The notes below the pieces were generated by a model. That model did no database searches, was not told the DNA's origin, and saw nothing but the letters and a program-made list of their open reading frames with translations. A stretch of DNA of 64,000 bases from NCBI GenBank assembly GCA_963714275.1, contig CAVQNT010000005.1, forward strand, positions 127,284-191,283, in the 5' to 3' direction. This document shows, in pieces, positions 1,542 to 63,953 of this stretch. The position numbers and the translations under genes were made by a program. The DNA comes from Candidatus Bathyarchaeota archaeon. Lineage in GTDB: Archaea > Thermoproteota > Bathyarchaeia > Bathyarchaeales > DTEX01. Position 1 is the stretch's first letter; the number at the start of each line of letters is the position of its first letter.

Positions 1542-1819
1542 ATTTCCAATCTTCCCATGTTGTTCCCTAAAAATTCATTGTATTTTTGCATATATAGAAC
1601 TGTGTAAAAAACCTCTGCTTTGCTACATCACAATTTAAAAAGAAAATTTCTTACTGACTAGCTAGCCTAACCATGCCATATTTTCTGGAATGTTGGTAAT
1701 GTGAGTTCAAGTATAAACAAAATTTAACATTCCAAACAATGAACTTAAGTATACCTATTCCAAGTATCTACTCCAAACCATAAAATGGCTATCAACTTCG
1801 TCAGTGGCGAAACAGAAAT

Positions 1820-2665
1820 TTGCCGATCATCGAAACAAAGAATTTAATGTATACTTACCCGATTGGTACGAAACCCGCCTTTGAAGACGTGACGTTACAG
1901 ATCGAAAAAGGCGAATTCGTAGTTTTAACTGGTCCCAGCGGATGCGGCAAAACCACTCTTTGCAGATGCTTCAACGGGCTCATCCCGCACTTCTACAGCG
2001 GAAAACTCGAAGGTGAAATAACGGTATCCGAATTAAGGGTATCAGAACACCCGATCCACGAGCTCGCACAACACGTAGGCATGGTATTCCAGAACCCAGA
2101 AAACCAGCTCTTCGCGCTTTCAGTGGAGAAAGACGTTGCCTTTGGTCTTGAAAACCTTGGAATGCCAAGGGACGAGATTCGTGGAAGAGTGGATTGGGCT
2201 CTTAAAACAACTGGAGTTTTTGAACTCAAAGACAGAGCACCCTACGAGCTTTCAGGCGGTCAACAACAGCGGGTCGCGATTGCCTCGGTTCTTGCCATGC
2301 AGCCTGAAATCATAGTTCTTGACGAACCCACCAGCTTTTTAGACCCACTTGGAGCTCAGAAAATTTTTGAGGTCATCAACACGCTCAATAAGGAACTCAA
2401 CATAACCACGATTCTAGTCGAACATAGGCTTGACTTAACCTCGAAATACGCGAGCCGAGTCATAATCATGGACAAAGGCAGAATCCTTTTAGACGGTCCT
2501 CCAAGGGAAATCCTCAGCAGCGAAGAAGCACGGTTGATCGGAGTGGGAATCCCAAAGGTAACGCGGCTTTACCAGATTCTCAAAGAAAAAGGCGTAAACC
2601 TGAGCAACATTCCGTTAAGTGCGGATGAGGCTACTAAAACTTTGTTAGAGGTTTTAGCAGGTTGA
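1820..2665 (+). CDS. ecfA1: ECF transporter ATPase A
   Basis: GPSGCGKT, FQNPENQ, LSGGQQQR, LDEPT. Confidence 0.9.
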   Translation: MPIIETKNLMYTYPIGTKPAFEDVTLQIEKGEFVVLTGPSGCGKTTLCRCFNGLIPHFYSGKLEGEITVSELRVSEHPIHELAQHVGMVFQNPENQLFALSVEKDVAFGLENLGMPRDEIRGRVDWALKTTGVFELKDRAPYELSGGQQQRVAIASVLAMQPEIIVLDEPTSFLDPLGAQKIFEVINTLNKELNITTILVEHRLDLTSKYASRVIIMDKGRILLDGPPREILSSEEARLIGVGIPKVTRLYQILKEKGVNLSNIPLSADEATKTLLEVLAG

Positions 2666-3483
2666 TCAAGATCGATGATATTCATTTCACTTATCCGAAC
2701 GGCGTTGAAGCCCTAAAGGGAGTCAGCCTCGATATTCAAGATGGCGAATTTCTCGCCATTATGGGGCAGAACGGAGCTGGAAAAACTACTTTAGTCAAAC
2801 ACATTAACAGCTTGTTTAAGCCTTCGAAGGGCACAGTTGTGGTCGACGACCTCGAAACGACAAAAGTCAGCGTAGCCACTCTTGCCAGAAAAGTCGGCTT
2901 TGTTTTCCAGAATCCTGATCATCAGCTTTTCAGCGAAACCGTTGAAGAAGAAATTTCGTTTGCCTTAAGAAATTTCGGGTATGACGAATCAGCCATAAAC
3001 GAAAGGGTCACGTGGGCTTTGAACCTTTTAGACCTAACGGAGTATCGCAAAGTTTCGCCGTTCATGTTAAGTGGTGGCGAAAGAAAAAGGGTTGCACTTG
3101 CTTCTGTTCTCGCATGGGACCCAAAAATCGTAATACTTGACGAGCCGACGATTGGGCAGGACAATCAACAGAAGGAACGGCTGAGACAGTTCATCGTGCA
3201 ACTGAACCGTCAGGGAAAAACCGTCATCATCGTCACTCATGACATTGAGTTTGTGGCTGAATGCAAACCTCGTGTAGTCTTAATGGCGCAGGGGAAAATT
3301 CTGGCTCAGGGCGAAGCAGAAAAAATCTTGACGAACTATGAGCTTGTCAACCAAGCATCGGTTGTTCTCCCGCAGATTGCTCAGCTTTTCACGAATCTCA
3401 AATGCAAAGGCGTCCCTACGGAGGTCATAGATGTTTATGACGCAGCAAAAATACTTCTGGGAAGGTTAGGTGAGCCCGTATGA
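2662..3483 (+). CDS. ecfA2: ECF transporter ATPase A'
   Basis: GQNGAGKT, FQNPDHQ, LSGGERKR; 4-nt overlap with ecfA1. Confidence 0.9.
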   Translation: MIKIDDIHFTYPNGVEALKGVSLDIQDGEFLAIMGQNGAGKTTLVKHINSLFKPSKGTVVVDDLETTKVSVATLARKVGFVFQNPDHQLFSETVEEEISFALRNFGYDESAINERVTWALNLLDLTEYRKVSPFMLSGGERKRVALASVLAWDPKIVILDEPTIGQDNQQKERLRQFIVQLNRQGKTVIIVTHDIEFVAECKPRVVLMAQGKILAQGEAEKILTNYELVNQASVVLPQIAQLFTNLKCKGVPTEVIDVYDAAKILLGRLGEPV

Positions 3484-4268
3484 GCATGTTTGATGGTTTC
3501 AAGTTCCGCAGCGTCTCCTCTGCGGTTCACAGGATGGATCCTCGGGCAAAATTCGTCTATGTCTGCGTATTGTTCGCGGTTGCTGTTATGTTCAGTCAGC
3601 TGATTCCGCTTCTTGTTTTATTCATTGTTCAGATGCCATTGGTTTTCGCTGCTCGGGTCCAGAAAGAGTGGTTGCGTTCCATGAAGGGGTCCGCTATGTT
3701 TGCTGTCATAATATTCGGAATGAACCTTTTAACCCTCTATTTTTATGGCAGCTACGAATCCCTATCAGCCGTCATAGAACGATCTCTGGCCTTAACTGTC
3801 AGGTTCATGGTTCTGATCGAGTCCTTCTCAGTGTTTTTCCTCACTACGTCGCCTGACCTTCTCGGTCTTGCGTTAGAGCAAAGCCATGTCCCCTATGAGC
3901 TGTGCTTCGCGTTCACAACAGCCGTCAGGTTTGTACCTGTACTTGCAGATGAGGCTCAGACCATAATGGATGCCCAGAAGGCGCGGGGGCTTGAACTTGA
4001 GGGCGGAAATTTTGTCAAAAAAATAAGGAACTACATTCCGATTCTGATTCCGCTCATTGTTAACGCGATCCGCCGAAGCCTTGAATTAGCGGAAACCATG
4101 GAGTCGAGAGCTTGGGGTGCCACCAAGAACCGAACAAACCTGTACGTCCTCAAGATAGGAAGAAAAGACCTTTACTTGGTGCTCTTCGCTTTCGCAATTT
4201 TATTGGTTTCAGTTTATGTCGTAACATACATAAAGATTCCAAACGTAACACACCTTCTCAACATTTAA
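3480..4268 (+). CDS. ecfT: ECF transporter transmembrane T component
   Basis: HRMDPRAK, AQKARG, MESRAW motifs; hydrophobic. Confidence 0.9.
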   Translation: MSMFDGFKFRSVSSAVHRMDPRAKFVYVCVLFAVAVMFSQLIPLLVLFIVQMPLVFAARVQKEWLRSMKGSAMFAVIIFGMNLLTLYFYGSYESLSAVIERSLALTVRFMVLIESFSVFFLTTSPDLLGLALEQSHVPYELCFAFTTAVRFVPVLADEAQTIMDAQKARGLELEGGNFVKKIRNYIPILIPLIVNAIRRSLELAETMESRAWGATKNRTNLYVLKIGRKDLYLVLFAFAILLVSVYVVTYIKIPNVTHLLNI

Positions 4269-4447
4269 CAACCACGAAAGGAGAGAAGAAAAGAAAGAAA
4301 AAATGGTTTTTTTACCTGCCTAAGGTATGCAGACCGTTGTGTTGGTGTGTAGTACACCTTCCAGTTGATGGATTTTGGTTTTTTAACCTGAAAAACCTTT
4401 TAAAGAATCTTATCGAAATAGGATTTGAGATGTAATTATTTTAACTT

Positions 4448-9054: not shown

Positions 9055-9131
<77 letters not shown>

Positions 9132-9157: not shown

Positions 9158-9171
9158 TTAGTCAGCTAGCT
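9158..9171. repeat. 4-bp-periodic junction tract (TTAGTCAGCTAGCT)
   Basis: ~26 nt after tRNA-Arg, at the start of the sugar cluster. Confidence 0.55.
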
Positions 9172-9339
9172 TTTAGACAGTTTGTAGGTAGTTCGAGGAG
9201 TATCTTGAGAAGACATCAACGTCTTTTTATCAATTTTCTATGACTGTTTGGTTGCCTAAATAATTGTTATATATGCAACATTTGATAGCTAGAATCAACT
9301 CCTTGACTAAAAATTAAAATTACTTGGTTGTGCCTGTGC

Positions 9340-20047: not shown

Positions 20048-20139
20048 GCTCCGGTAGTATAGTCCGGTCAAGTATTCCGGCCTTTCGACCCAAAAATGGA
20101 AGACAGTCGGAAACCCGGGTTCAAATCCCGGCCGGAGCA
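20048..20139 (+). tRNA. tRNA-Glu(TTC) with a 17-nt intron at canonical position 37/38 (20088-20104)
   Basis: GCTCCGG/CCGGAGC acceptor stem; anticodon stem CCGGC/GTCGG; intron GAAG pairs with CTTT, giving a bulge-helix-bulge-like motif. Confidence 0.92.
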
Positions 20140-20175: not shown

Positions 20176-20197
20176 TAGCTGAGTTAGCTAGCTAGCT
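20176..20197. repeat. 4-bp-periodic junction tract (TAGCTGAGTTAGCTAGCTAGCT)
   Basis: Between tRNA-Glu and the glycoside hydrolase stop; left edge of the mosaic region. Confidence 0.75.
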
Positions 20198-20214
20198 TTA
20201 TTCTGAATTTTTCT

Positions 20215-24422: not shown

Positions 24423-24537
24423 TTTTTTCTCTTTTTATATGATAACATGCATTACTTAAACACAATTGCTTACATAAAATCAGTGAAAATAATTATAAAA
24501 TGGGATTTTATTATTAAAAATTTATATATTCGAATAA

Positions 24538-24555
24538 AGCTAGCTAGATAGCTAA
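24538..24555. repeat. 4-bp-periodic junction tract (AGCTAGCTAGATAGCTAA)
   Basis: Intergenic between divergent, unrelated modules. Confidence 0.7.
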
Positions 24556-24797
24556 TGGGATAAGCTTTTATATTCCTCTTTTCTGTTTCTCATTTTTCAG
24601 GGACGCGTACTTGGTAAATAGAATAAGCCAAATCTACAAGTCGCTCAAAGGAGTGGAATTAAGAAATACCCTCAAGAGAATTATCGAACAACGCGTAAAC
24701 CAGCTAAACCGGGGCAATAGTCCTACTGCACGTGCTATACCCAAGCAAAAATGAAAAAAAGTCAATGAAAGATCTTGATTCAGATTGGTGTTTGTAA

Positions 24798-26247
24798 ATG
24801 AAGGCATACGATTTGATAGTAATAGGGTCGGGTTCAGCTATGGAGATCGTGAACGCTATGTTTCAAGAAAACCAGAGCATGAAAGTTGCGATCATAGACA
24901 AGGATGAGCCTGGTGGCATCTGCTTAACCCGAGGGTGCATTCCCTCAAAAATCTTGCTATACCCAGCAGAGCTCGTGAGGACGATAGATAGAGCTGGCGA
25001 ATTCGGTATAGACGTTATTGTGAAGAAAATAGATTTTGCAAAAGTCATGGAGAGAATGAGAAACCTCATCAACAAGGACATAAACGCTATACGACAAGGG
25101 CTTTCTCACTCCGAAAACATAGATTATTACCCAACCGTAGCTGAATTTACCGCTCCATACACGCTTAAAGTTGGCGGCAACAACATAACGTCAAAGATGA
25201 TAATTCTCTGCACAGGATCAAGACCAGTTGTCCCTCCAATAAAAGGCCTTCAAAATGTAGGTTACTTGACCAGCGACACAATCCTCAAATTGGATCGCTT
25301 GCCTGAAACCACGACCATTATTGGCGGAGGATACGTAGACTGCTGAATACGGGCATTTTCTTTCAGCTATGGGGTCAAAAGTAACCATAATCGGCAGAAA
25401 CCCGCAGTTCCTACAAGATGAAGAACCCGAAATATCAGCGCTGGCAAAGCGGGAATTGCAGAAGCGTATGACAATTATTACCAACCACGAAGTTCGCAGC
25501 GCAGAAAGAACGTTGACGGGAAAAAAGAAGCTGATTGCTGTGAACAGCGAGAATCAAAAAGAAGTTGAGATTGTGGGGGACGAGATACTGGTTGCCTCAG
25601 GAAGAGAACCGAACATAGACATACTTCACCCAGAAAGATCTGGCATAAAAACAGATGAAAGAGGATATATTATCGTTAATGAGTATGCAGAGACCTCGCA
25701 GCCAAATATTTGGGCTTTAGGTGATGCAGATGGCAAATTTCCATTCAAGCATGTGGCAAATTACGAAGCCCAAATCGTATATTACAATGCTGTCCTTAAA
25801 AGGAAGGAAAAAACTGATTATCACGCAATACCCCATGCTGTTTTTACAGATCCTGAGATTGCAGGCGTCGGACTAAAGGAGAAACAAGCAATACAGGAAT
25901 ACGGGAAAGACAATGTGTTAATAGGGTTCCAAAGATTTCAGGATACTGCAAAAGGAGAGGCAATGGGCGTCAAGGACTATTTTGTAAAGGTTGTTGTCGA
26001 GAGAGAAAACATGAAGATTTTGGGTGCTCACATTATTGGGCCCGAAGCCTCAGTCCTTATACAGGAAATAATAAACCTAATGTATACTCCTGATCAAAGC
26101 GCAGAGACAATAATAAACGCGATGCATATCCACCCTGCTCTAAGCGAGGTAGTACAAAGAGCATTTTTCTCCCTAATGCCTCCAGAACACTACCATCATT
26201 CTATTGAAGAAGTTAGCTCACTACATATTTGTTTGGATTCTTATTGA
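24798..26247 (+). CDS. Dihydrolipoamide dehydrogenase/mycothione reductase-like flavoprotein (frameshifted)
   Basis: IGSGS, GGICLTRGCIPSK, GGGY, HIHPALSE. Confidence 0.85.
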
Positions 26248-26359
26248 AGGTTGCCATGCAGTTGGATGAGCAGAAATAGTAGGTTTTGCCCATTTGTTTA
26301 CTTGTGAATTTTGCTGTTTTCTCGTTTACAGTCATACCGCAAACTGGATCTTTCGCCAT
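26213..26359 (-). CDS. YHS/TRASH domain protein (copper chaperone-like)
   Basis: MAKDPVCGM...YYFCSSNC...NP.KY; stop lies inside tract 26211-26223. Confidence 0.85.
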   Translation of the reverse strand: MAKDPVCGMTVNEKTAKFTSKQMGKTYYFCSSNCMATFNKNPNKYVVS

Positions 26360-26496
26360 ATTTATCTCACCTCTTTCTAGCTTTTCTAAACGAATCCTGG
26401 AAATGGAACACATAGCCACAGACATTCTGGATAGAACTGGTCGGAACTGTCGGGTATAACATTACTGAGCCGCTGGCTCCGGGAATTAGTGGGTTG

Positions 26497-26796
26497 CTAT
26501 AACCTGTCTTCATACTTCTCTTCCACAATCATATAGCTTCTGTATCCTGTTTTGTCTATCTCCTTCCTTATTGTTGTTGAATCAATCAGTTTTGGATTGT
26601 AGTCTATGAAGACCTTGTCCAACATAATTGCTGCATTGACGTCGTCAACCCCTTTCAGCTTTTTGACACGTTTTTCAATCGCGGAGGCACATGTAACGCA
26701 ACTCATTCCTCTAACCGACACTGTGATCCTGTTTTTTTCCATCTTTTCGATGTTTTTTATTTTTTCCTTTTGCGAATCTTGTCTATTATCTTCCAC
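26497..26796 (-). CDS. HMA-domain copper chaperone (CopZ-like)
   Basis: GMSCVTC motif. Confidence 0.85.
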   Translation of the reverse strand: MEDNRQDSQKEKIKNIEKMEKNRITVSVRGMSCVTCASAIEKRVKKLKGVDDVNAAIMLDKVFIDYNPKLIDSTTIRKEIDKTGYRSYMIVEEKYEDRL

Positions 26797-26815
26797 GTTT
26801 TCAACACCTTTTCTT

Positions 26816-28900
26816 TCAGAAAGTGGGTTTAAACCTCTCTAATAGAAGGGAATTACCAACAACCGTAACGGAACTGAAAGCCATCGCCCCCGCGGCGAGG
26901 AAAGGAAGCACATTGTATATCTGAACCCCAAAGAATGGAACTAGTGCTCCTGCGGCGATAGGAATAAGGACTGTATTGTAGCCAAAAGCCCAAAAAAGAT
27001 TCTGTTTGATTTTGCTCACTGTGCTTTTGCTCAGCTTTAGGGCTGTGACAACATCTCTTAAGTCTTCTTTGATTAGCACGATTCCACCAGTTTCCTTGGC
27101 CACATCGGTCCCGCTGCCTATCGCAATACCGACATTGGCCCGGGCTAAGGCTGGTGCGTCATTGATACCATCACCAACCATAGCCACAATTTTTCCCTCT
27201 TTTTGAAGGCCTTCGATTATGGCTTCTTTTTGCTGAGGCAGAACTTCGGCAAAAATCTTTTCTATGCCCAGTCTTCTGGCTATTGCCTTGGCTGTTCGCT
27301 CATTGTCTCCTGTGAGCATTATCACTTCTAAGCCCATACGCTTCAACTCTACTATTGTCTCTGTGGCGTATTCCTTCAAAGTATCAGCAGAGCAAATCAC
27401 ACCTGCCAATGTGCCTTTGACTGAAAGGAACATGACCGTTTTTCCATCTTCCTCGAATTCCTTCACTCTTTCTTCTAGCTTCGAAAGATCTACTGCCATC
27501 TCAGTCATTAGCGTTCTACTTCCCAGAAAGATTTCGGTATCTCGAATCTTTGCTTTCACACCTTTTCCGGGGATAGCTTCAAATCCTAGTGGATCTAGAA
27601 GTTTGAGGGAACGCGAAAATGCTTCCTTCTCGATCGCCTCAGCCAAAGGGTGTTCAGAGCCCTTTTCAACCGATGCTGCAAACATGATAACCGTATCCGC
27701 ATCGTATTTGCCATATGCTATCACGTCTATGACAGAGGGTCTTCCCAGGGTTAATGTGCCTGTCTTGTCGAATAATATAGATGTGACCTTTTGGGCTGTT
27801 TCCAAGTTCTCTCCGCCTTTGATCAGTATGCCGTTTTGGGCACCTTTGCTTGTGCCCACTAAAAGGGCAGCAGGAGTCGCTATTCCGAGAGCACAGGGAC
27901 AAGCTATTACCGTCACTGAAACAAAGATGAGAAGGGAAAATTGCAGACCTATCCCACCGACGAAATACCACAGAAGAGCTGACCCCATAGCGATCAAGAT
28001 TACAGAGGGAACAAAGTAGGCTGCCACTCGGTCGGCGAGATTCTGGATTGGTGCTCTTCCAATCTGGGCCTCCTCAACGAGTTTAACTATCTGAGCCAGC
28101 GTGGTGTCTTGACCCACCTTTGTTGCCCTAACCTTTAGCATACCAGTTCTGTTTATTGTGGCTCCTACAACCTCATTGCCGGGATTCTTTTCCACAGGGA
28201 TGCTTTCACCCGTGATCATGGACTGGTCCACAGAGGAATGTCCTTCTACCACGGCACCGTCTACAGGAACTTTTTCCCCAGGCCTAACGATGAAGATGTC
28301 ACCAACCTGTATTTGTTCAATTGGAATTTTAATTTCTTGTTCACCTCTTAATATGTGTGCAAGCCTGGGTTGAAGATCCATTAACCTTCTCACAGCTTCA
28401 GATGCCCTACCTTTGCTTACATGTTCAAGAAATCTTCCTGTTAACACTAAGGTGACAATCACTGCTGCTGTATCGAAGTAGACTCCACTAAAGGCGAAAG
28501 AAGACGGAAAAAAGGTCACAAAAGCACTGTATATCCATGCGGCACTGGTACCCAATACTATAAGGCTGTCCATGTTTCCCATCCTATTCCGGATGGCATC
28601 ATAGGTTCCTCTATAGAATCGCCATCCAAAAATGAATTGAATGGGCGTGTCAAGAGCTAGGAGAATATAGTTATTAATAGTCATTGGCAGAAAAATAACA
28701 TACGTTAATATTAGGATAGGAACAGTCAAGATAGCCCCAATGACAACAGAGATTTCCAAAAGTCTAATTTCAACTTCCGGAGCCAAAAACTGTTTCATAC
28801 AGGTTTGGCTGCAAAAATAGTAGTTGGTTCCCCTAATAGTTACCTTAAATTCGGCAGTCTTTTCATCCACATACATTCCACAGACAGGATCCTTGGCCAT
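26816..28900 (-). CDS. copA: Cu+-translocating P1B-type ATPase with N-terminal YHS domain
   Basis: DPVCGM, TGES, CPC, DKTGT, SEHP, GDGIND, YN and M..SS. Confidence 0.93.
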
Positions 28901-28935
28901 AGGTTCTCATCACAAACTTTCATTAATGAATTTGA

Positions 28936-28968
28936 ATATATAAAATCAAAGCTCTGCATCTAGATGCA
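28936..28968 (-). promoter_or_regulatory. copA TATA box plus perfect palindrome TGCATCTAGATGCA (28955-28968)
   Basis: TTTTATATAT on the minus strand ~36 nt before the ATG; 14-bp palindrome ~10 nt further upstream. Confidence 0.55.
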
Positions 28969-29069
28969 AATATACTTTTTTATTTTCTAATTGAATAAAT
29001 CAGGAAAAAATTTTGCAGCCTAAATTTACTCACTTGGTTCAGTAGCCATCCCTTTATTTGAACATCGGG

Positions 29070-29088
29070 CTAGCTTAGCTGCTAGCTA
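29070..29088. repeat. 4-bp-periodic junction tract (CTAGCTTAGCTGCTAGCTA)
   Basis: Upstream edge of the cop module. Confidence 0.7.
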
Positions 29089-29201
29089 TTTTAAAACATG
29101 ATATTTTCATACCAATAATTGGAGTAGTCGTAAAGCCAACTTTATGAATTCCCAAGGTATAAGCGGAAAATCTAGTTAAATTCTAAACAGTCTAAACGAG
29201 G

Positions 29202-29220
29202 CTGACTAGTTGACTAGTCA
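29202..29220. repeat. 4-bp-periodic junction tract, hairpin (TGACTAGT-TG-ACTAGTCA)
   Basis: Directly abuts the 5'-truncated YHS fragment. Confidence 0.7.
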
Positions 29221-29322
29221 ACGGAGTACAGAACAGACCATAATGGAAAAACGTATTATTTCTGTTCATCTGGATGCAGAGAAACCTTCGAATCTAACCC
29301 TCGGAAATACGAAAAAAAGTAG
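29221..29322 (+). pseudogene. 5'-truncated YHS-domain gene fragment
   Basis: TEYRTDHNGKTYYFCSSGCRETFESNPRKYEKK*; DPVCGM half and start codon missing. Confidence 0.75.
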
Positions 29323-29326
29323 CTAT

Positions 29327-29934: not shown

Positions 29935-30713
29935 TTAGTTTTTCCCGATTCCTCTTTTTCCGAGGATTATTATGGGATATTTGGTGATTTGTATTCCTTT
30001 GCTGGTGAGATATCGCCTTTTCAGCTCTTTCAGTAGGGAAAGGTCTTTCTCTTTTTTGAACCCTTTTACTATTGGATCGAACTCCATTTGTTTTATGAGC
30101 TGGTCGAGTGTATAGTAATCTCTGATGATGAAATCCTTTTCTTGTACACTAGTCAGTCCGTGTGATTCAAACCATTCTAAACGTTTCCATGACGTCTTGT
30201 ATGCTCTGAGACTGTGCCAAATCGAGCTGATAAGCACGGTCTCCAAATACATCCTCTATCTCTAGCCAGCGATCGTAGAGCCCCGACATTTGTAGAATGT
30301 ACCAGCCTCCCGGCTTCAATACTCTCAACGCCTCGTCAATGCTGCAGGGCGTAAGTTTTGACATTACCACCTGAAAAGATTCGTCTTTGAAAGGTAGATT
30401 ATGTGCATCTCCCCTAATGGCAACGATGCTGTGAAGGCTGGCTGTGTTGTTCTTGGCTATTCTAACCATGCATTCTGATAAGTCCATAGCGACAACCTCG
30501 ATAAGCTTTCTTAGTCTTCTGGGCGATCCGAAAAGAAATGTGTCCTGTACCGGTGCCGATGTCAAGGATTCTAGACCCATCAGAGCATCTTTGCAGCACA
30601 TCATCCTCATATACCTTGTCAACATCGACCCCCTCTCGTTCAATTGTTGGTTCTTCTTCTTTTTCAAACCTGTCCTTAGCGAGAGCTCTACCTTGCGAAT
30701 ATGCCAGATCCAT
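29935..30713 (-). CDS. Class I SAM-dependent methyltransferase (frameshifted)
   Basis: ILDIGTGTG, GDAHNLPFKDESF, RVLKPGG. Confidence 0.82.
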
Positions 30714-30955
30714 AACATATAGATGGTTCTTACATTTTAAATACTTAGAACGATGAAATGCGTAGTATCTAAAGACCGCGGAAAAAGCTTAATTATTTAT
30801 AAGGGTTAGTGTGCCGATAATGGTGAATATCGGAATAGAAATAGTTCCAAACTATTCTTTTGGGTTCTCATAATCCTCATTATCAGTAGAGATTAGCCTT
30901 GAGGTTACTGAACTTCTCTTAGCCAGTGTGGAATCTCTCAGTATAGGTGTCGATG

Positions 30956-33169: not shown

Positions 33170-33498
33170 TTAGCTGCTAAATAGCTGACTTGCATAGCTA
33201 AGCTCTTTGATCTGAATTTCGGTTTTTTCACTACTGGCTGATGGTCTTTTAGCCACGGTTCCCACGCTGAATGTGAAGCCGCAGTTGTCGCATCCGATTG
33301 TGTAGCGGCCCGCTTGCTTTAGTCTTCTAGAGCGGCACTTCGGACAGCTGACTTAGTTGTTAGCTCTTCGACTGACTCTTCTGTGGCAAAAAACAATGTT
33401 GGGGATTTGAAGGCTTTCATGGCAATATATAGGATTATCACTACAGCAACGGCAGCGAATATTAGTATCGCATAGGTTATAGGGTCGTTGATTTTACC
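33170..33498 (-). CDS. Membrane-anchored zinc-ribbon protein (frameshifted, start uncertain, not in the ORF track)
   Basis: TM YAILIFAAVAVVIILYIAM, then CPKC...CDNCGFTF in the shifted frame; AGGAG upstream. Confidence 0.55.
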
Positions 33499-33525
33499 TG
33501 TCTCCTAAACGCTTTACCATTTCAT

Positions 33526-34608
33526 TTATTCGCTGAAAAGATTCCCCCAGAATCCTTTCTTAGGCGGTGCCTCTTTCTTGACCATTTCGACTTGCTGTCC
33601 CTCTCCCAAAGGAGCCCCTAAACCGACGGGTGAAACGCCTTCTTTGAGGAATGGGCTTTCGACGCCTGCTAAGACCACTGTTGCACGCATGCTGCCTTGC
33701 CTTGAGCTGTTAACTCTAGCGCCCCATGACACTTTTGCAGTCGGAGAGATCCTGCTTACCAAGATTTCTCCAGCTCTGTTGACGTCTTCTAGGGTCATGT
33801 CGTCACCGCCTTCAATGTGGACCAGTGCACCCTCAACTTTCTTGATGTCACCTATGTCAAGGAGTTGTAGCTCCAGTGCCCTTTCTACGGAGTCTTCGAC
33901 CATAGTGTCTCCTTGACCCTCACCAACACCCATGGCACATACGCCGCTTCCCATCATAATCGCTTTCAAGTCAGCAAAGTCGAGGTTTACGAGGCTTGGC
34001 ATGGAGATGGCTTCAGAAATGTTCTTAATGAAGGTTGCAATCAGTTCGTTGGCAACAGCGAAAGCTTCTGAAAGTGGCAGGTTACCAGCGACTTTTCTGA
34101 GCCTGTTATTGTCAATCACGATTGTTGCATCGCATACCTCAACCAGTCTCTTCAAACCTTCCTGTGCCTTCACAAACCTTGATCTTTCAACTGTAAATGG
34201 CGTAGTGACCACTGATATCGTCAGAGCACCCATTTCCTTGGCTAATTTAGCAATTACTGGGGATGCGCCTGTTCCGGTTCCACCGCCAAGACCAGCTGTC
34301 ACGAAGACTAGTCCAACGCCGGATAATAGTTTCTCGATCTCTTCTACGCTTTCTTCAGCAGCTTTAGTGCCTTGCTCTGCGAAGCCTCCGCATCCGAGGC
34401 CGCCTGTGACTTTGTACCCTATGAGTATTCTTTGGTCAGCCTTTGTTATGCTTAGGTGTTGTGCGTCAGTGTTCAATCCGTAGATCCTTGCGCCTGCGAC
34501 TCCTTTGCCTTTCATCCACGTTACGACGTTGCATCCAGCTCCGCCAACTCCTATTGCGGCTATCTGTGGGATAGATTCTCTAGCTATCTCTTCAATATTT
34601 TGCTCCAT
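33526..34608 (-). CDS. ftsZ: Cell division protein FtsZ
   Basis: GVGGAGCN, NTDAQHL, GGGTGTG, T7 loop NLDFADL. Confidence 0.95.
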   Translation of the reverse strand: MEQNIEEIARESIPQIAAIGVGGAGCNVVTWMKGKGVAGARIYGLNTDAQHLSITKADQRILIGYKVTGGLGCGGFAEQGTKAAEESVEEIEKLLSGVGLVFVTAGLGGGTGTGASPVIAKLAKEMGALTISVVTTPFTVERSRFVKAQEGLKRLVEVCDATIVIDNNRLRKVAGNLPLSEAFAVANELIATFIKNISEAISMPSLVNLDFADLKAIMMGSGVCAMGVGEGQGDTMVEDSVERALELQLLDIGDIKKVEGALVHIEGGDDMTLEDVNRAGEILVSRISPTAKVSWGARVNSSRQGSMRATVVLAGVESPFLKEGVSPVGLGAPLGEGQQVEMVKKEAPPKKGFWGNLFSE

Positions 34609-34867
34609 ATTTTTTTTCTCCTTTTTTGTTAATTTTCTATATTCTGTAAGCTCAATTTTTAATTATACAACCGTGGATATAAAGCTTTCCAAAAGTAAAC
34701 CCAGATGACTATATTAGTAAGCTATACTAAGATACTGAAGTACTCGTACATATTATAAGAATATACTCCAAAAAGTCACCTAGAGGTAACAAAAGTATCA
34801 ATTAAAAGTGAATTTAGCAATAACTTTTATATACTAAAAAGGTTAAATCTTCGCTGAGGAATTTGCC

Positions 34868-35062
34868 TTGGCCAAACAAGGACAAGAGACGAAAGATTAC
34901 GAAGAGATCGTCGTGAAGCTTGCCATATCAAAAGACTACCTTAGAAAACTCGAACAACTAATCAATGTAAAAAGAATATTCTCAAGCAGGGCTGAGGCTT
35001 TAAGACGGTCATTAGAGCTTCTATTTGATAAGTACCAAGATGCTTTGAAAGATAACCAATAA
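34868..35062 (+). CDS. Ribbon-helix-helix (CopG/Arc) protein, divergent from ftsZ
   Basis: IVVKL...L..LEQLI....FSSRAEALRRSL. Confidence 0.75.
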   Translation: MAKQGQETKDYEEIVVKLAISKDYLRKLEQLINVKRIFSSRAEALRRSLELLFDKYQDALKDNQ

Positions 35063-35133
35063 AGACTATACTCTACAGCGTAACCGAATCTTCGTTCACT
35101 TACCCAACCGTTTTTATATTTTCTATTTCTGTA

Positions 35134-35556
35134 CTAGCTAGCTGACTTTTAATGATTTAGAAATATTTTTGAAATAAGTCTTTTCACCATATTGATCTAT
35201 TTCTTTTAGAGAAAAGACCCGTTTATTCTCCAATATGTGTTCCAGCTTCGCGTTTGAAACGGGTGAGATTTCTAAATGTGAGTATCCTTTAGTACACGTA
35301 TATCTCTCCCAAAGTTCAATAAATTTGGTGCCATGCCCCTTGTTCTCATTAAAACTCTGTATCAGAACTATGCAACAGTCGGTACCGTAAGCTGCGTTAC
35401 TTGTTTGCCTTCGTACTCAAGAAAATAGGTAAGAATATTATCTTGATCTGCCCATCCATTGGCTGGTCTATCACCAGCTTTCACTTTACGAAAAACATAT
35501 TTCCCATCACAAATCACGACGAACCCAGCCTAGTTTCCTTTTACATTCAGAGCGGA
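35134..35556 (-). pseudogene. GNAT acetyltransferase-like fragment
   Basis: IQSFNENKGHGTKFIELWE...KGYSHLEI motif A; bounded by tracts at 35133-35147 and 35556-35576. Confidence 0.45.
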
Positions 35557-36524: not shown

Positions 36525-36540
36525 AGCTAGCTGAGCTAGC
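36525..36540. repeat. 4-bp-periodic junction tract (AGCTAGCTGAGCTAGC)
   Basis: Supplies the stop codon of the truncated YkgJ-type ORF. Confidence 0.7.
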
Positions 36541-36733
36541 CTTCAACTCTCTCAACGAACTCTTGCAGACTCATTGTTGTCTTTCCCGCGATATGTTCTG
36601 CTTCAGTTCTCAGCAGAAGAACCATCCTAACCTTCCCCTTGGCATCTCCGCAACACATCGCACATCTATCACACGCAAAACAAACATGTTTAGGATGTGT
36701 GAACCTCATAAGTTCTTCAGGAATCTGCATCAC
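36536..36733 (-). pseudogene. YkgJ-family cysteine-cluster protein, 3'-truncated
   Basis: FACDRCAMCC present; C-terminal C.FL...C.IY..RP..C half absent. Confidence 0.7.
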
Positions 36734-38669: not shown

Positions 38670-38956
38670 TGATTAGGTGATACTTGGGTATTATTTCTCC
38701 ACTTTCCTAATATATTGACTCTAGTTTCACTTTCCCCCGAAAGAATTTTTTATAAACCTATTGAAGTGCCTTTAATTATCTTTCATTAAAAAAGCTAAAA
38801 GGCTACTAGAGATTTCGATCCCAAAGGATTCCCAGCGAGCTCAGCACTCTAAAAGCGAATTTCTCTCTTTCTGGCAATAGACTTGAACCCTTTTTGGGTA
38901 TAAATCCTACCAACTCTACCACATTCGTAAAAATAATCTATATGGCTTAGTCTAGC

Positions 38957-39610
38957 TCAGCTAACTACCCTCGAGATCGCATAACCCAATCCTATCCTGA
39001 ACCTAACTGAGAGAGGAGAAATCCTACCCGCGTAACCTACTTTGCCAGCCTTGAGAGCCGCAAGAACCTCATCAACGTCTGGATCGTCCAACTCAACCGT
39101 TGTGTACGCGTTACCAACAGCCTGAGCATAATGAGCATCACTCCCACCAACCCCGGGAAGACCAAGCCTCTCAGCGACACCCAACCCCCTCTTCAAGAAA
39201 AAGAACGAAAACGGATACGACGCATTAAAAACCTCAACAAAGTCAGGCCTACAATGCATCCACCTGTCAAGGTGAAGCCGGTTAGCTGCTGGATGCGCAA
39301 GAACAGACAACCCACCAAGCCTCCTAGCCCACTCAACAAGACCTTCATATCTGAAGTGATAAGACGGTAACCGCTCCAAACCCAAAACAAGCACATGACC
39401 AGCATCAGTCTCAACCTCAAACCCCGGCAAGACAAGCAGCCCGCTTCTGCATGCTTTGGCAATGTAATATCCCTCAAGCGTATCATGATCTGTTATTGCC
39501 AATCCGTCTAAGCCCTTCTGTGCAGCCGTCTCAAGAATCTTCTCCACAGTCCCATGACCGTCAGAATATTCAGTATGAACGTGCAAGTCTATCCTGAGAC
39601 CCAACACCAA
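38957..39610 (-). CDS. PHP-domain phosphoesterase
   Basis: DLHVHT.YSDG, AITDHD, AHP, GGSDAH. Confidence 0.9.
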   Translation of the reverse strand: MVLGLRIDLHVHTEYSDGHGTVEKILETAAQKGLDGLAITDHDTLEGYYIAKACRSGLLVLPGFEVETDAGHVLVLGLERLPSYHFRYEGLVEWARRLGGLSVLAHPAANRLHLDRWMHCRPDFVEVFNASYPFSFFFLKRGLGVAERLGLPGVGGSDAHYAQAVGNAYTTVELDDPDVDEVLAALKAGKVGYAGRISPLSVRFRIGLGYAISRVVS

Positions 39611-39757
39611 ACCCTTCCAGACTGCATAATCAGGACTTGAATATTGGGCTAACCGTATTATTTAGCATAACTCATCAATCGAGCCAGCTCAGCTAGAGAG
39701 ATCACTTCAATGAAACAGGCAACCAATCAGGATTAATCCCGCATCTCAGATCGCTTG

Positions 39758-40750: not shown

Positions 40751-41134
40751 AGCTGAGCTAGCTACTGAGCGCACACTCTATTTTTTTTTGTGTGAGTCAC
40801 ACACACGCTTGTGCATGTGTGAAGGAGGTAATATATAGAGTAATAGAAAGGAGAATAAAAAGAAGAGAGAAGAAAAAGATTAAAATTTAATCCCAAACCC
40901 AAACATATTCTCTAATTTCCAATAATTCTCTCATTCTCTCTCTTATTACACATACACACAAAACTAAGTTGGATTGTTGAGTTCTGCATTGAAAGAACGT
41001 TATTGAAAACGTCAATGAACTGTGTGTGCAATATCAATGCATTCAGTTCAAAAACTAAAATTAGAAATGGGTAAATAGAGAAATAGAATAAAATGGGGAA
41101 TTATGCTAACAGTTAGAATAACTAGCTAGCTAGC
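40751..41134. other. Non-coding low-complexity island with central palindrome GATTAAAATTTAATC (40878-40892), bounded by junction tracts
   Basis: GA-rich left arm, CT-rich right arm, TG/CA runs outside; tracts at 40751-40770 and 41119-41134. Confidence 0.6.
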
Positions 41135-41375
41135 CGTTGTGTAACTGATAGCGCGAGCTAAATATAGTATAGCCCGTCTCTTGTCTTTTTAATTGTTGAA
41201 GCGTCACAAGTAAATACTGTAGCCAATCGATTTCCTGCAAGTTTAGATTGGCAGTCTCAGGTGTCATCGCCTTATCTCTAGAAACAGCTCCTGCCTTTCT
41301 AAGTTTATTAACAACTCTATAGCTTATGGAATAAACTATTCCAGTCAAATCAAAACTCAAAATAATCACTTTCAT
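41130..41375 (-). CDS. Hypothetical protein
   Basis: 81-aa ORF; stop inside CTAGCTAGCTAG. Confidence 0.4.
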   Translation of the reverse strand: MKVIILSFDLTGIVYSISYRVVNKLRKAGAVSRDKAMTPETANLNLQEIDWLQYLLVTLQQLKRQETGYTIFSSRYQLHNG

Positions 41376-41662
41376 GTATAATTATGTGCACGGTCGCTTA
41401 TAAAATAGGCCTTAGAACATTTCATTAATTTGCGGAGAAATTCTAGTTGGATTATTTTGTTTCAGTCTCAGGACAGCCTAAACAAGATCTGTCTCCATCA
41501 CTAACTAGTGAGCTAGCCAACCTATGGCATCCACCAAGGCAACCACTGTTCATATTTCACTATTAGCTAGCTTAGCCAGCCAGAACGTTAGTATAGTTCA
41601 AAGCCTCAATTATGTCCTAATAATAGTTGTTGTAATCTTGGCAGTCACAACAGTCTTTTTTG

Positions 41663-42735: not shown

Positions 42736-42760
42736 CTAGCTAGCTGAGTTAGCTCAGCTA
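42736..42760. repeat. 4-bp-periodic junction tract with hairpin (CTAGC-TAGCTGAG-TTAG-CTCAGCTA)
   Basis: 14-nt identity with 20176-20189; upstream edge of the fprA module. Confidence 0.8.
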
Positions 42761-42913
42761 AAATGAATAACCGATTAGCATTCGGTTTTTTTGTTTCTAT
42801 ATGCTCTAACTTTTAAAGTAACTAAGTTTTTAGCTACGATTGCATATTATTGGATAAATAAGAGAGACGTGATAAATATCCTTAGCAAAGGAGTGACTAG
42901 CGGGGTGAATAAA

Positions 42914-46831: not shown

Positions 46832-46874
46832 CTGGTTTAGAATAATACGAATAATGCAAATTAACTCATACAGA

Positions 46875-47528: not shown

Positions 47529-47694
47529 ATTAGACTTTAGAACTACTATATCTTAAAAAAAACAGCACGGATCTATTATATCTGTATGATTCTTTTGGAG
47601 AAGCCAAGAGGGCTAGTGAGTGAACTGTACCAGTTAAGCTTCAAAAATAATAGAAGTATAAGTTAATACAATAATATGCCTAAAAGAATCCATG

Positions 47695-55685: not shown

Positions 55686-55811
55686 ACCTGATTCCTCTTT
55701 AAAGATGTTTTATTTGGATTATGTTTTTTTATGGTGTAGCATGATAATATATTTTGTCTTTAAGAAAAAATGTTTAGGAAATAATTCTTTACCATTTCCC
55801 TGTTGATTAGA

Positions 55812-56273: not shown

Positions 56274-56354
56274 AATATTCGACCCGACAGAGAATAATTT
56301 CTAATATGCATTTAGGTGTTTCGATTGCATTTGATAATGTATGATCTTAATACG

Positions 56355-56378
56355 CTAGCTAGCTAGCTAACTCACTAA
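56355..56378. repeat. 4-bp-periodic junction tract (CTAGCTAGCTAGCTAACTCACTAA)
   Basis: Six consecutive CTnn units. Confidence 0.8.
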
Positions 56379-57686: not shown

Positions 57687-57720
57687 GTGTGTGTGCATTA
57701 AAATTTAATCCAACACACAC
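57687..57720. repeat. Inverted repeat GTGTGTGT-GC-ATTAAAATTTAAT-CCA-ACACACAC
   Basis: Core identical to 40879-40891 and 58586-58598. Confidence 0.75.
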
Positions 57721-60620: not shown

Positions 60621-60891
60621 AGCTGCAGAGAACATTGCGTCCAAAAGAGTAATGGAAAAAACAGGAACTGCTTGACTTTTTCCATTTGAAAAATCTTAGC
60701 TGCCAGATCAGGCTCCTTTCATAAAAGTTCAATCAGCTGAAGATTGGATGTACCCCGATTTATAAACGATTTACTGTTCACATTAGCTTCTGCGACTTTT
60801 CTCTTGGATCTCTGAGTGACTAATCGACCGAGTTACATTAACCCTTAAGCCTTATTAGCAGATGCATACTTTCATGTTTTCGAGGATTTTT

Positions 60892-62509: not shown

Positions 62510-63583
62510 TCAACTTACGCTTGCATTACGAATAGATTCTAGGTTAAAATTCTCCAACACACTTGGATTGACAACCCAGAAAGGTTTCTCGCCTCTTAAT
62601 AGTCTATTGATATCTTCAATAAGCAGTTCTGGGGAGCGCGTAAGAACTGATCGTCGTGCCAGCTAAATGCGACGTTAACGTTACATTGTCCAATTGGGTT
62701 AGGATGTGGTCTTTAGGTAGAGGCTCAACCCAAAAGACATCAAGAGTGCGCCTGCGATCTTTTTATCCTTCAACGCTTTGCACAGTGCACTCTCATCAAT
62801 TATCTCAGCCCTAGCCGTATTTATAACATAACTTGTTGGCTTCATGAGAGAGATCAATCTTTCATTAATCATTCCCTTTGTCTCGCCAGTCAATCTCGCG
62901 TGAATACATACATAGTCGGATTCTCCGAAGAGATCTTCAAGTGATGCGGGCTCCGCTTGGGCTTTCTTAATCTCTTCCTCATGAACATAAGGGTCGTATA
63001 CCAATATTTTAAAGTCGAATCCAGAAAGCTTCTTAATGACAAGGCGACCGACATGACCAAAACCAATAATTCCAACAGTTCGGCCCTTCAAATCGTGAAT
63101 GTTTTCTTCCTGAGGCTTAAACCAGATGCCTGACTTCAACAGAATGTTGCTTCTGGCAATGTTCCGTGCTTCTGCGAGAAGAAGCCCCACCGTAAAGTCT
63201 GAGACTGCTTCCGCATTTCTACCCATAGCCCTAAAGACGACTACTTGTTTTCTACTGGCTTCCGTCACATCCACATTTTCACATCCGGCACGACAAATAC
63301 CAATTACCTTGAGTTTCTTGGCTGCTTTAATTAAATCCCCTGGGAGGGGCGCGTAATGTGCTAAAACCATCTCCGCATCCAGAACTCTGTCGATGATTTC
63401 CTGTGAGATATGTTCCAAGGATGGTCCATACTTCTCTATCTCCCTTCTAACTCTCTGCAGTTCAACTTTGTCTAAGATCCAGTTAGTCATCTCTATCTTG
63501 AGATTTTTAATATCTAACTTTTTGGCGGCCTTAACTATGTCGTTTGCTTCAATCATGCCATCTCCTATCACCGAAACCTTCAA
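62510..63583 (-). CDS. D-2-hydroxyacid/phosphoglycerate dehydrogenase-like protein (frameshifted)
   Basis: RAG.ENVD, NAEAVSD, GFGHVG, INTARA. Confidence 0.85.
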
Positions 63584-63691
63584 CCCAATCAGCTCCTTCC
63601 AAAAGGTATTGACAATTAATCTACCAAATATCAATATCGTAGAAGTTACTTAATTTTAGTCACTCAGCTAAGTAGAAGCCTCCTTTATGGC

Positions 63692-63796
63692 TTATCGTTG
63701 AGCTTTCAGCACGTCGAGTATTCCGTTCGTGAATATGTCTTCACCTACATGGGCTGCTACGACCTTTCCGACAAACAATGTGTGATCTCCACTTCG
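63692..63796 (-). pseudogene. Flavin reductase-like C-terminal fragment
   Basis: RSGDHTLFVGKVVAAHV. Confidence 0.6.
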
Positions 63797-63930
63797 TGAT
63801 CAGACTTGAGCCTAATAGTATAGTCAGGTTTCTTTTTGCCGCTTGGTGAAGGCAACAAGGTCTCTGGAACGATCATGTACATTAAAGCTATGTGACATTT
63901 AGTAGCTTGAATCGTCTGGCCAACAGCTAT

Positions 63931-63953
63931 TGACTAGCGAGTTAGTTAGATAG
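63931..63953. repeat. 4-bp-periodic junction tract (TGACTAGCGAGTTAGTTAGATAG)
   Basis: Five consecutive nnAG units: CTAG CGAG TTAG TTAG ATAG. Confidence 0.75.

Follow-up and report, generated by a model that had tools for sequence, protein, structure and literature searches.

Tandem AGCT tracts between gene modules of a Bathyarchaeota genome as possible joints of DNA breakage and rejoining

The window, a stretch of 64,000 nucleotides of a Candidatus Bathyarchaeota genome (G000), is scattered with short tracts of repeated 4-nt words, which raises the question of what these tracts are and whether DNA is broken and rejoined at them. A preliminary description listed 44 tracts as tandem nnAG or CTnn units and read them as scars of successive gene gain and loss. 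Here the tracts are compared with duplicate copies on other contigs of the same genome (C2, C4, C5 and C7), with relatives (G001, G002, G004, G010, G017, G030 and others) and with other populations, represented by Logan contigs from four other studies (runs X1-X4), in which chimerism is possible at repeats.

Composition and placement of the tracts

The tracts are real, the quoted strings being present at all 44 positions, and their first definition was imperfect. The literal rule of at least three nnAG/CTnn units is barely above chance in the window (138 matches vs 118.1±11.0 in 100 dinucleotide shuffles), and the majority of 3-unit matches lie inside ORFs; against the same shuffles, the counts are 30 vs 15.4±4.0 for at least four units, 10 vs 2.0±1.3 for at least five and 3 vs 0.2 for at least six. 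The nnAG/CTnn definition is too loose, and the real signal is confined to tandem AGCT, a self-complementary word, or CTAG, which is the same repeat in another register. The strict core AGCT(N0-1)AGCT, a pair of AGCT words with a spacer of 0 or 1 nt, is found in 23 of the 44 listed tracts, and 34 have at least two AGCT or CTAG words inside 36 nt; the ten weak ones are those at 26211, 29321, 29867, 32116, 39883, 44958, 50749, 60812, 63656 and 63931. In the window, AGCTAGCT occurs 17 times (expected 1.06) and AGCTSAGCT 10 times (expected 0.47). Intergenic DNA of the whole genome holds AGCT.?AGCT 269 times against 25.3±4.7 expected, a 10.6-fold enrichment that is absent for pairs with 2- or 3-nt spacers. 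The palindrome TAGCTAGCTA (8-10 bp) is enriched 45-fold (45 vs 1.0 expected), and TAGCTSAGCTA is found 52 times against 0.8 expected. The genome shows no avoidance of AGCT overall (observed/expected 0.95), which argues against a long-standing AGCT restriction.

Tracts contain 2-5 units with varied flanks, and the bare (AGCT)n junction element measures 8-24 nt. Their density is 0.03 per kb in genic and 0.38-0.57 per kb in intergenic DNA, with similar values for convergent (0.57), divergent (0.48) and tandem (0.38) spacers. No fixed distance to gene starts or stops was found, and no conserved sequence beyond the tract was detected in 588 flanks. Relatives carry nearly no tandem AGCT tracts: (AGCT)3 sites number 17 in G000, 4 in G002 and 1 in G017, and the 38 other relatives have none. 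As the relatives are mostly short-read MAGs, in which islands of this kind are possibly unassembled, what seems specific to G000 may be an assembly effect. In the comparison with relatives, proposed at the outset as a check, the tracts have no counterpart at syntenic positions and are therefore not conserved regulatory sites.

The non-identical units and 1-nt slips first ascribed to the tracts are largely an assembly artefact, and coincide with systematic AGCT-linked consensus errors; the slips, and in part the degeneracy, have the look of such errors. An extra base at AGCT is missing from contigs of the four other studies, and among the indels listed as common to the runs 9 of 12 are at AGCT. 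Within G000's own duplicates, 41 of 154 1-nt gaps touch AGCT, where 2.4% is expected. The tract AGCT(G)AGCTAGCTAC at 40751..40770 has a bracketed G that is missing in all three covering runs, and the longest tract of the window, CTAGCTAGCTGAGTTAGCT(C)AGCTAAAATG at 42736..42763, has a bracketed C that is missing in four of four. At 9055..9131 on the + strand, a tRNA found by ARAGORN (anticodon region GCG) has AGTCT in its anticodon loop where G002 and G004 have AGCT, so that a 4-base anticodon is predicted; this too is taken as a probable AGCT-linked consensus error. Such indels break ORFs, as in the methyltransferase-gene module at 29955..30761 (- strand), split by two AGCT-linked 1-nt errors (30229, 30503), and applying the indels of other runs merges two ORF pairs (189 to 283 and 140 to 256 codons). 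The impression that tracts stand where a gene is cut is thus partly a frameshift-error effect. Consensus errors at methylation motifs are documented for nanopore data, as outlined in PMC6591954. We infer base modification at the AGCT motif, and the ragged look of the tracts (AGCT-S-AGCT, AGT, AGTCT) would mostly be long-read consensus error at a modified AGCT-containing motif.

Tracts at breakpoints

Both module junctions and lineage-specific indels and replacements are enriched in tracts. In the window, a listed tract is no more than 15 nt away from 13 of 38 duplicate ends, where an intergenic null gives 15% and an any-position null 5.6%. Over the whole genome, a strict tract stands no more than 5 nt away from 24 of 411 distinct duplicate ends (about 6%), compared with 0.7% for a shifted null and 1.1% for a local intergenic one, an enrichment of about 5-fold over the latter, and four control palindromes give no signal at duplication ends. 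The placement of tracts between unrelated modules therefore holds statistically, not universally; that they stand almost always at junctions is not supported, given these same 24 ends of 411 and the tract ACTGACTAGCTAGCC (1653..1667), which lies in a spacer collinear with relatives and without rearrangement, where G002 and G004 hold unrelated letters of similar length. From the break at 29689, no tract is nearer than about 180 nt. Tract density is 0.66 per intergenic kb in duplicate-rich bins and 0.48 outside them (1.4 times), the latter value marking the tracts as a general intergenic feature. The statement that only two tracts lie in the first 20 kb was judged wrong; its own list has 1653 and 9158 there and then 20176, immediately beyond 20 kb.

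Where the window is syntenic with G002 and G004, five of six tracts coincide with G000-specific deletions or replacements or lie no more than about 140 nt from them, sites at which the contigs of both relatives are contiguous and tract-free. Homology with relatives stops at the 3' end of the tRNA 9055..9131, and the tract TTAGTCAGCTAGCTTT (9158..9173) begins 27 nt past it, at a spot filled with mutually unrelated DNA (about 0.13-0.19 kb in G000, 1.0 kb in G002 and 1.25 kb in G004). A tRNA-Glu (TTC) at 20048..20139 (+ strand) borders the variable region on the left, and G001 has an integrase fragment about 0.5 kb past the same tRNA. The tract at 20176..20199 is within 70 nt that replace, in G000, a segment of 1.3-1.6 kb common to G002 and G004 (76.5% identity between the two). 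A 4.7-kb module with a split Pyr_redox gene and a P-type ATPase (24505..29208) stands in place of a different segment of 2.7-2.9 kb common to these relatives; the tract at 24538..24557 is about 35 nt past its left synteny break and CTAGCTTAGCTGCTAGCTA (29070..29088) is near its right end. Exactly on the right break, where a gene is cut, CTGACTAG-TTGACTAG-TCAAC (29202..29224) shows an 8-nt tandem duplication; the duplicated stretch is coding in G002 (TTGACCAGTCAAC, YHS-type motif).

Among the ends of duplicate pairs at least 95% identical, a tract is exactly at the break in the window copy at 5 of 12, and the other copy continues without a tract by regular expression, although a short-read contig of run X1 shows a tract in one of these five other copies. 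The tract at 42736 adjoins the start of a flavodiiron-type gene module (42759-44098) that shares 97% identity with C4:90993-92340, a copy without a tract on its left. Likewise, CTAGTGAGTGAACTG (47613..47627) bounds a glyoxalase module on the left (47623-48776; 95% identity with C2:397487-398641), and (CTAG)3-CTAACTCACTAA (56355..56378) bounds a peroxiredoxin module on the right (55058-56352; 98.7% identity with C2:398937-400230), the other copy being tract-less at the corresponding end in both cases. Many junctions are one-sided in this way, the donor copy having no tract and neither AGCT nor CTAG at the break. Two further ends differ, with the tract in both copies and divergence after it: 41132 (tract 41119..41136; 88% pair, C7:30428) and 41517 (tract 41501..41517), the right end of a 544-nt duplicate that is 99% identical to C2:938515-939055. 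Tracts also mark the left ends of a 154-nt duplicate (38946..38969; 93% identical to C4:94646) and of a 212-nt duplicate (TTAGTCACTCAGCTAAGTAG, 63656..63675; 97.6% identical to C2:375729-375940). An FtsZ-paralogue module (33212..35133, - strand), sharing 85% identity with C5:70704-72638 and 89% with G004:C73, has tracts at both ends, the cluster 33170..33209, found in a form 34 nt shorter in run X1, and ACTAGCTAGCTGAC (35133..35150); the second copy in G000 has none at either end. Modules are about one gene long and of mixed orientation.

In other populations, 7 of 11 listed joints, plus one further, touch a tract or hold AGCTAGC-type letters between the joined sides. An X4 contig holds the methyltransferase module between two AGCT tracts followed by other sequence. 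Another X4 contig joins 35143 to 36534, omitting a 1390-nt SSB-like module between the 35133 tract and AGCTAGCTGAGCTAGCC (36525..36541), which form a direct repeat (AGCTAGCTGA); this joint is weak, since its shorter side has just 22 letters. Runs X2 and X4 join 39828 back to 38967 through letters containing CTAGCTAGC or AGCTAGC, and two joints of other runs begin inside the tract at 39682..39705 (39682>39790 and 39689>39735). The shorter side of tract-to-tract joints is mostly 20-30 letters, and such joints can arise from repeats, which the tracts are. X1 contigs also branch on both sides of 40871-40904, where 40880..40900 (+ strand) is the core TTAAAATTTAATCCCAAACCC of a promoter-like low-complexity element.

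Other possible origins

The scar interpretation is supported in the enrichment at junctions and indels and is not supported in its account of the enzyme and of single events. It had taken the tracts for stacked 4-bp target duplications or footprints, left by IS5-, IS701- or IS630-like elements or by cutting, fill-in and rejoining, with one event per 4-mer. The 4-bp CTAG words at insertion, deletion and replacement junctions are compatible with YTAR-type targets and resemble the target duplications and footprints of IS5, IS701 and IS630/Tc1 elements, and filling in a 4-nt ^CTAG or ^AGCT overhang before rejoining would duplicate the unit. Nevertheless, six-frame searches of the whole genome, which gave matches in control genomes, found no IS4/IS5, DDE_Tnp_1, DDE_3 (IS630), TnpB, Y1_Tnp/HUH or serine recombinase/Resolvase; no multi-copy IS-like repeat occurs in the genome, and no tract was found with an element inside. 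The unit differences, being largely assembly errors, are unusable as an event record. This origin is very improbable. That the window itself has neither transposase nor integrase is borne out by 50 ORFs scanned against Pfam and by the whole-genome search, none of whose recombinase matches lies in it. The only kind present in G000 is the generic tyrosine recombinase (14 Phage_integrase matches above cut-off), and with such an enzyme acting in trans the tracts could be minimal crossover sites and the tract-bounded modules would travel as cassettes, like integron cassettes or pdif modules. The tract-to-tract joints of other populations, the direct tract repeats around 35144-36533, the two duplicates with a tract in both copies and the gene-sized modules fit this possible but rather unlikely reading. 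Dif/pdif modules are small, bounded by short sites and moved in trans by host Xer recombinases, which is the likeness here, but the pdif site is a 28-bp site with two arms and the tracts have no conserved arms or structure beside them. Tyrosine recombinase counts do not follow tract counts either (13, 14 and 15 matches in G001, G010 and G030, with 0-3 TAGCTSAGCTA sites and no (AGCT)3), and the many one-sided junctions with a tract-less donor speak against crossover. Integron cassette arrays and CALINs, reported in Archaea too (bioRxiv 10.1101/2022.02.06.479319), are similar in that a short recurring element stands between modules of roughly gene size with unrelated functions; the modules are common to different loci and populations, and the enzyme need not be near. 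Unlike them, the tracts have no attC-like paired inverted repeats, gene orientation is mixed, and G000 lacks an integron integrase (best IntI match 44 bits vs cut-off 265).

It is also conceivable, if quite improbable, that the tracts are functional signals, either operators, bound by a dimeric or tandem-binding regulator, or all-frame stops, and that their link with breakpoints is a by-product of their position at gene borders. The enriched palindrome, the near confinement to intergenic DNA and the TAG in all six frames of (CTAG)3 are in keeping with this. Against it, promoter-bearing spacers are not preferred over convergent ones, distances to starts and stops are not fixed, syntenic sites of relatives do not keep the tracts, and the breakpoint excess persists against the local intergenic null. 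Of 294 tract loci, just 36 close the three frames of both strands (+ strand 70, - strand 64), and period-4 triple stops without AGCT/CTAG are barely enriched (95 vs 78±12 and 97 vs 73±7). An artefact of assembly or base calling would explain the whole pattern by chimeric joins, by invented repeats at modified DNA or by proximity-ligation junctions; a HindIII site filled in and ligated gives AAGCTAGCTT, and the assembly does show AGCT-linked errors. Tracts are, however, present in contigs of the four other studies, which bridge 14 of 17 strict tracts between 29000 and 48900 with listed differences of 1 nt only. GTAGCTAGCTAGC, TAGCTAGCTTT and GCTAGCTTAG occur within loose ends of such contigs, CTGACTAGCTAGCTCTGA lies upstream of the FtsZ copy in a short-read relative, and 2-5 units with varied flanks are unlike one ligation junction. 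As far as the tracts' existence is concerned, this explanation is largely refuted; it is extremely improbable for the pattern as a whole, and stands for the 1-nt irregularities.

Proposed breakage and rejoining at AGCT runs

The reading favoured here, with a probability of about one half, is that (AGCT)n is a self-complementary joint of breakage and rejoining between gene modules, with AGCT consensus errors as the main source of its raggedness. REP/BIME elements with RAYT are likewise hundreds of short intergenic palindromes and rearrangement hot spots, but G000 has no Y1 transposase and its tracts are tandem 4-mers instead of stem-loops of 20-40 nt. The AGCT-rich switch regions of immunoglobulin genes are tandem repeats that serve as break-and-join zones in which intervening DNA is deleted or exchanged; the process is vertebrate and deaminase-driven, and the archaeal tracts share only the resemblance. 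Synthesis-dependent microhomology-mediated end joining, as outlined in PMC5728401 for induced breaks in Drosophila, uses CTAG and GGCC repeats near breaks as direct and inverted primer repeats and creates repeat motifs at repair junctions without Ku. The palindromic 4-mers and the independence of Ku, which was not found in G000, are the points of likeness to that outline; in G000, AGCT alone is used and the archaeal enzymes are putative.

From these patterns we infer a break-and-rejoin mechanism that would be independent of Ku, with a putative breaking agent; no nuclease, polymerase or ligase could be linked to the tracts. Two (AGCT)n ends could pair in whatever 4-nt register, so that rejoining would need only microhomology of a few bases and a putative ligase or polymerase. 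Rejoining in or beside a tract would remake it at the junction, where it may grow or shrink, and tract-less ends could be captured next to a tract, leaving a one-sided junction. Short AGCT runs in non-coding DNA would thus be preferred points of DNA breakage and rejoining, beside which gene-sized modules may be inserted, deleted, replaced or copied.

Tetranucleotide tracts in the window and the genome

All of the strings quoted in the preliminary description, which regarded about 40 degenerate 4-bp-periodic nnAG/CTnn tracts as candidate scars at module junctions, are present at their positions (44/44). The rule behind them, at least three tandem nnAG/CTnn units, is nearly uninformative, since it gives 138 runs in the window where shuffles that keep dinucleotide content give 118±11, and the majority of the 138 fall within ORFs. 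Longer runs in the window exceed the shuffles, with 10 against 2.0 for at least five units and 3 against 0.2 for at least six. Among the 44 sites, 23 have the strict core AGCT(N0-1)AGCT, two or more AGCT/CTAG words are present at 34, and 10 count as weak; the list is confirmed in part. The top enriched 8-mer in the source genome (G000) is GCGCGCGC, at 7.8-fold, and ranks 2 to 5 genome-wide are held by CTAGCTAG, GCTAGCTA, TAGCTAGC and AGCTAGCT. AGCTAGCT occurs 17 times in the window with 1.06 expected, and AGCTSAGCT 10 times with 0.47 expected. In intergenic DNA of the source genome AGCT.?AGCT is found 269 times where 25 are expected under an order-3 model fitted to intergenic sequence, and AGCT pairs with 2- or 3-nt spacers are not enriched there. 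TAGCTAGCTA is observed 45 times against 1.0 expected, and triplicates of other 4-nt palindromes show no enrichment. The units of the tracts are in tandem, up to about five.

The source genome, which measures 2.64 Mb in 10 contigs and is archaeal by its gene content (a TBP gene, intron-bearing tRNAs and FtsZ), has 295 tract loci. These are clustered, the top tenth of 10-kb bins holding 43% of them, and the tract count correlates with the duplicated fraction (rho 0.41) and with the intergenic fraction (rho 0.42). Per intergenic kb there are 0.66 tracts in duplicate-rich bins and 0.48 elsewhere, a modest excess. A general link to tRNAs is rejected, as a tract lies at most 90 nt downstream of just 2 of 39 tRNAs, both in the window; the same applies to alternating purine-pyrimidine runs, of which just 13 of 224 lie within 60 nt of a tract. 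There are 17 (AGCT)3 sites in the source genome, 4 in the relative G002, 1 in the relative G017 and none in 38 other relatives, and TAGCTSAGCTA occurs 52 times in the source genome (0.8 expected) versus 0-5 times in relatives. Across GTDB species genomes (CTAG)4 gives at least 120 stretches in many bacterial taxa and a few archaea, mostly one per genome, with no informative lineage pattern among the matches listed. A literature search on AGCT/CTAG tetranucleotide repeats and on nanopore sequencing and methylation of Bathyarchaeia turned up no account of such tracts in archaea.

Assembly errors linked to AGCT

Contigs from four sequencing runs of four other studies were compared with the window at 29000-48900. 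Run X1 has no cover at 44272-48900, and stretches without cover in some runs are left out of the interpretation. Among the 12 indels listed, of 69 between the runs and the window, nine are at AGCT. At 30229, 31611, 31963 and 40755 an AGCT of the window is followed by a G that the runs lack. Relative to the runs, the window also has an extra C in AGCT-C-AGCT at 42755, an extra A and a missing G adjoining AGCT at 30503 and 33351, respectively, and an AGCT that lacks its C at 41210 and 42893. Several of these AGCT indels are common to every run that covers the place. Genes split by apparent frameshift lie at 24798-26247, 44351-44879, 45282-46434, 51060-52668 and 60862-62244, as well as at 29935-30718 and 37901-38669. 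Once the indels of the other runs are applied, the ORF at 29935-30718 grows from 189 to 283 codons and that at 37901-38669 from 140 to 256 codons; two further indel edits give no gain in ORF length. The mending of these two split ORF pairs indicates that the apparent pseudogenes are at least partly assembly errors.

Two independent checks agree that the raggedness is largely error. Among 154 1-nt gaps between duplicates within the genome, 41 touch AGCT, while 2.4% are expected, and the tRNA at 9055-9131 reads AGTCT where the relatives G002 and G004 have AGCT, the extra T being the source of the "4-base anticodon" called by ARAGORN. Consensus errors bound to methylated motifs are reported as typical of nanopore data (PMC6591954). 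From the AGCT-linked consensus errors we infer that the assembly is of nanopore type and that AGCT, often AGCTA, is modified. No C5 methylase is found in the source genome, which has several N6/N4 methylases, including one at window 245-964 without a nuclease neighbour; solved relatives of this enzyme point to no particular recognition site. A cluster of AGCT restriction-modification sites would call for an AGCT-specific modification together with a cognate endonuclease. AGCT overall is not avoided in this genome (observed/expected 0.95). GGCC (0.34), CCGG (0.65) and GATC (0.66) are strongly avoided genome-wide, which suggests restriction systems with those sites.

Because of these errors AGCT-S-AGCT and the "1-nt slips" should not be taken as biology. 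The slips and the degeneracy put forward in the preliminary description are thus largely AGCT-linked assembly error; some of the degeneracy is real, because CTGACTAGCTAGCTCTGA and GCTAGCTTAGTC occur in short-read contigs too. Motif-specific errors of unpolished long-read assemblies look like degenerate repeats, disrupted genes and abnormal tRNAs.

Tracts, duplicates and structural junctions

The tracts are a real feature of this genome and an unusual one, and their association with structural variation is genuine, though only partial. The window runs to the end of contig C5, and its part past about 29 kb is a mosaic whose pieces match other islands of the source genome at 85-99% identity. Low-copy dispersed duplicates of 85-99% identity amount to about 145 kb, or 5.5% of the genome, with islands at C2:295-405 kb, C2:920-990 kb, C4:80-156 kb, C6:460-480 kb and C7:180-220 kb. 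Of the 38 piece ends in the window, 13 are no more than 15 nt from one of the 44 listed tracts, where two nulls give 15% and 5.6%. Across the genome 24 of 411 duplicate ends have a strict tract at a distance of 5 nt or less, where the nulls give 0.7-1.1%; control palindromes give 0-2. Often the homology ends exactly at a tract in one copy and the other copy runs on without a tract, AGCT or CTAG, as at 42759, 47623, 56352, 63670 and 35133, with the reverse case at 52321. The two copies share the tract at 41132 and at 41517, and diverge beyond it. In comparison with relatives, tract 20176 belongs to a 70-nt stretch that stands in place of a 1.3-1.6 kb segment common to G002 and G004, tracts 24538, 29070 and 29202 flank a 4.7-kb replacement, and tract 9158 follows a tRNA at a place of hypervariable sequence. 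At 29202 the string is a tandem duplication of 8 nt where a coding stretch is truncated. Tract 1653 is in a spacer collinear with relatives, and the break at 29689 has no tract.

Contigs of the other runs bridge 14 of the 17 strict tracts at 29000-48900, so the strict tracts are not chimeras, and a proximity-ligation or chimera artefact is rejected for the tracts themselves. Tracts are involved in 7 of 11 joints listed in the other runs and in one further joint, with the caveat that most of these joints have short sides and that the tracts are repeats. A tetranucleotide microsatellite would have identical tandem units whose number differs by whole units between individuals; the sole within-tract variant among these contigs skips 34 nt, and AGCT-linked errors blur the unit counts. 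Contigs of the other runs begin or stop at several tracts, which suggests that the module islands may be absent or under-assembled in short-read MAGs.

Genes carried by the islands are accessory genes of an ordinary cellular kind (a flavodiiron protein, peroxiredoxins, thioredoxin-reductase-like proteins, a nitroreductase, a P-type ATPase, and FtsZ and TBP paralogues), and no virus or plasmid hallmarks are seen among those of the window. The variable island holds additional copies of TBP (36793-37266), FtsZ (33526-34608) and an SSB-like OB-fold protein (35658-36371). NERD and PHP proteins are encoded at 39895-40650 and 38957-39610, respectively. Some window modules are nearer to a relative than to their own paralogue, such as the FtsZ module, with 89% identity to G004 and 85% to the genome's own copy, and this hints at DNA uptake from related organisms. 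In the relative G001 an integrase fragment (C67:31045-31200) follows, by about 0.5 kb, the same tRNA-Glu as the one at the edge of the window's variable region, which makes this tRNA a possible hot spot of integration in the genus.

Other repeated elements are found in the same genome. A promoter-like core, TTAAAWTTTAAYCCCMAAMCC, is located at window 40871-40904 and 57698-57718 and elsewhere in the genome, for example at C4:99106/105161 and C6:469844/475238, and is flanked by purine-rich (GAGAGAAAGA) and CT/CA-rich low-complexity arms. The source genome has 38 copies of it; six relatives, another family among them, have 1-4, and reversed controls have 0. Its arms fall into families and occur in varying combinations, 5-6 kb segments are bracketed by inverted pairs whose 100-nt arms are identical, and contigs of X1 diverge on either side of the core. 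The palindromic block GTGTGATATACAGCGCGCGCTATATG is at 42620-42660, with similar forms near other tracts, and one run has an extra GC in its (GC)n part.

Possible origins of the tracts

The tract pattern best fits break-and-rejoin at microhomology, as placement is blind to orientation, junctions are one-sided, the unit is self-complementary and there is no flanking signal: 588 flanks have no conservation beyond the AGCT period and no extended similarity. Palindromic 4-mers are reported as primer repeats in synthesis-dependent MMEJ (PMC5728401). Ku-dependent end joining requires the Ku protein, and PF02735 has no match in the source genome. The tracts fit poorly as functional signals. Were they regulatory sites, a preference for one spacer type might be expected, but densities per kb are similar in convergent (0.57), divergent (0.48) and tandem (0.38) spacers, with 0.03 in ORFs, and no fixed distance to gene starts or stops is found in the genome. 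As all-frame stop signals they should close every frame on both strands, which just 36 of 294 tract loci do, and hardly any enrichment is seen for stop triplets that contain neither AGCT nor CTAG.

Nor do the tracts match the known mobile systems considered. The preliminary reading, an insertion-sequence scar or similar event recorded by each unit, is not supported; much of the fine structure is assembly error and no matching transposase is found. The DDE models PF01609 and PF13358, used here for the IS5, IS701 and IS630 families together, have no match in the source genome and are positive in control genomes. The genome has neither IS4/IS5 nor IS630 elements and no serine recombinase, and the Y1 HUH transposase (PF01797) and TnpB (PF07282) of IS200/IS605 and REP-RAYT are absent too. 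Intact IS or MITE copies with a duplicated 4-mer are not apparent, as self-comparison shows no high-copy element; the sole repeat of depth 4-5 is about 270 bp long and occupies six places, including C2:255562-255837. Integron and CALIN arrays have attC sites, structured imperfect inverted repeats with conserved core sites between the cassettes, of which the 588 flanks show no sign and for which an Rfam scan of the window gives two tRNAs and nothing else. Their cassettes are mostly in one orientation, whereas here strands alternate in blocks across 20-64 kb, and the best match to the integron integrase model TIGR02249 in the whole genome scores 44.3 bits against a cut-off of 265. Xer/dif modules use a 28-bp two-arm site and the tracts have no conserved arms. 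The genome has 14 generic tyrosine recombinases, and across 20 relatives the counts of such enzymes do not follow the tracts.

Beside break-and-rejoin at microhomology, a dedicated nuclease or recombinase is possible. We give a probability of about one in five to (AGCT)n tracts being the working sites of an undescribed cut-and-rejoin, integron-like gene-capture system. In such a system the tracts would be opened by a nuclease associated with an AGCT-containing modification, after which their self-complementary ends would be joined again in whatever register, with capture of DNA fragments from relatives and shuffling of gene-sized modules, which would make a gene-capture platform that needs neither attC sites nor an integron integrase. 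If the tracts are reusable joints of this kind, they would account for the accessory-gene islands, mostly of redox and stress genes, in an uncultivated sediment archaeon; these islands would be built without recognisable transposons or integrons, by a junction far simpler than any known recombination site.
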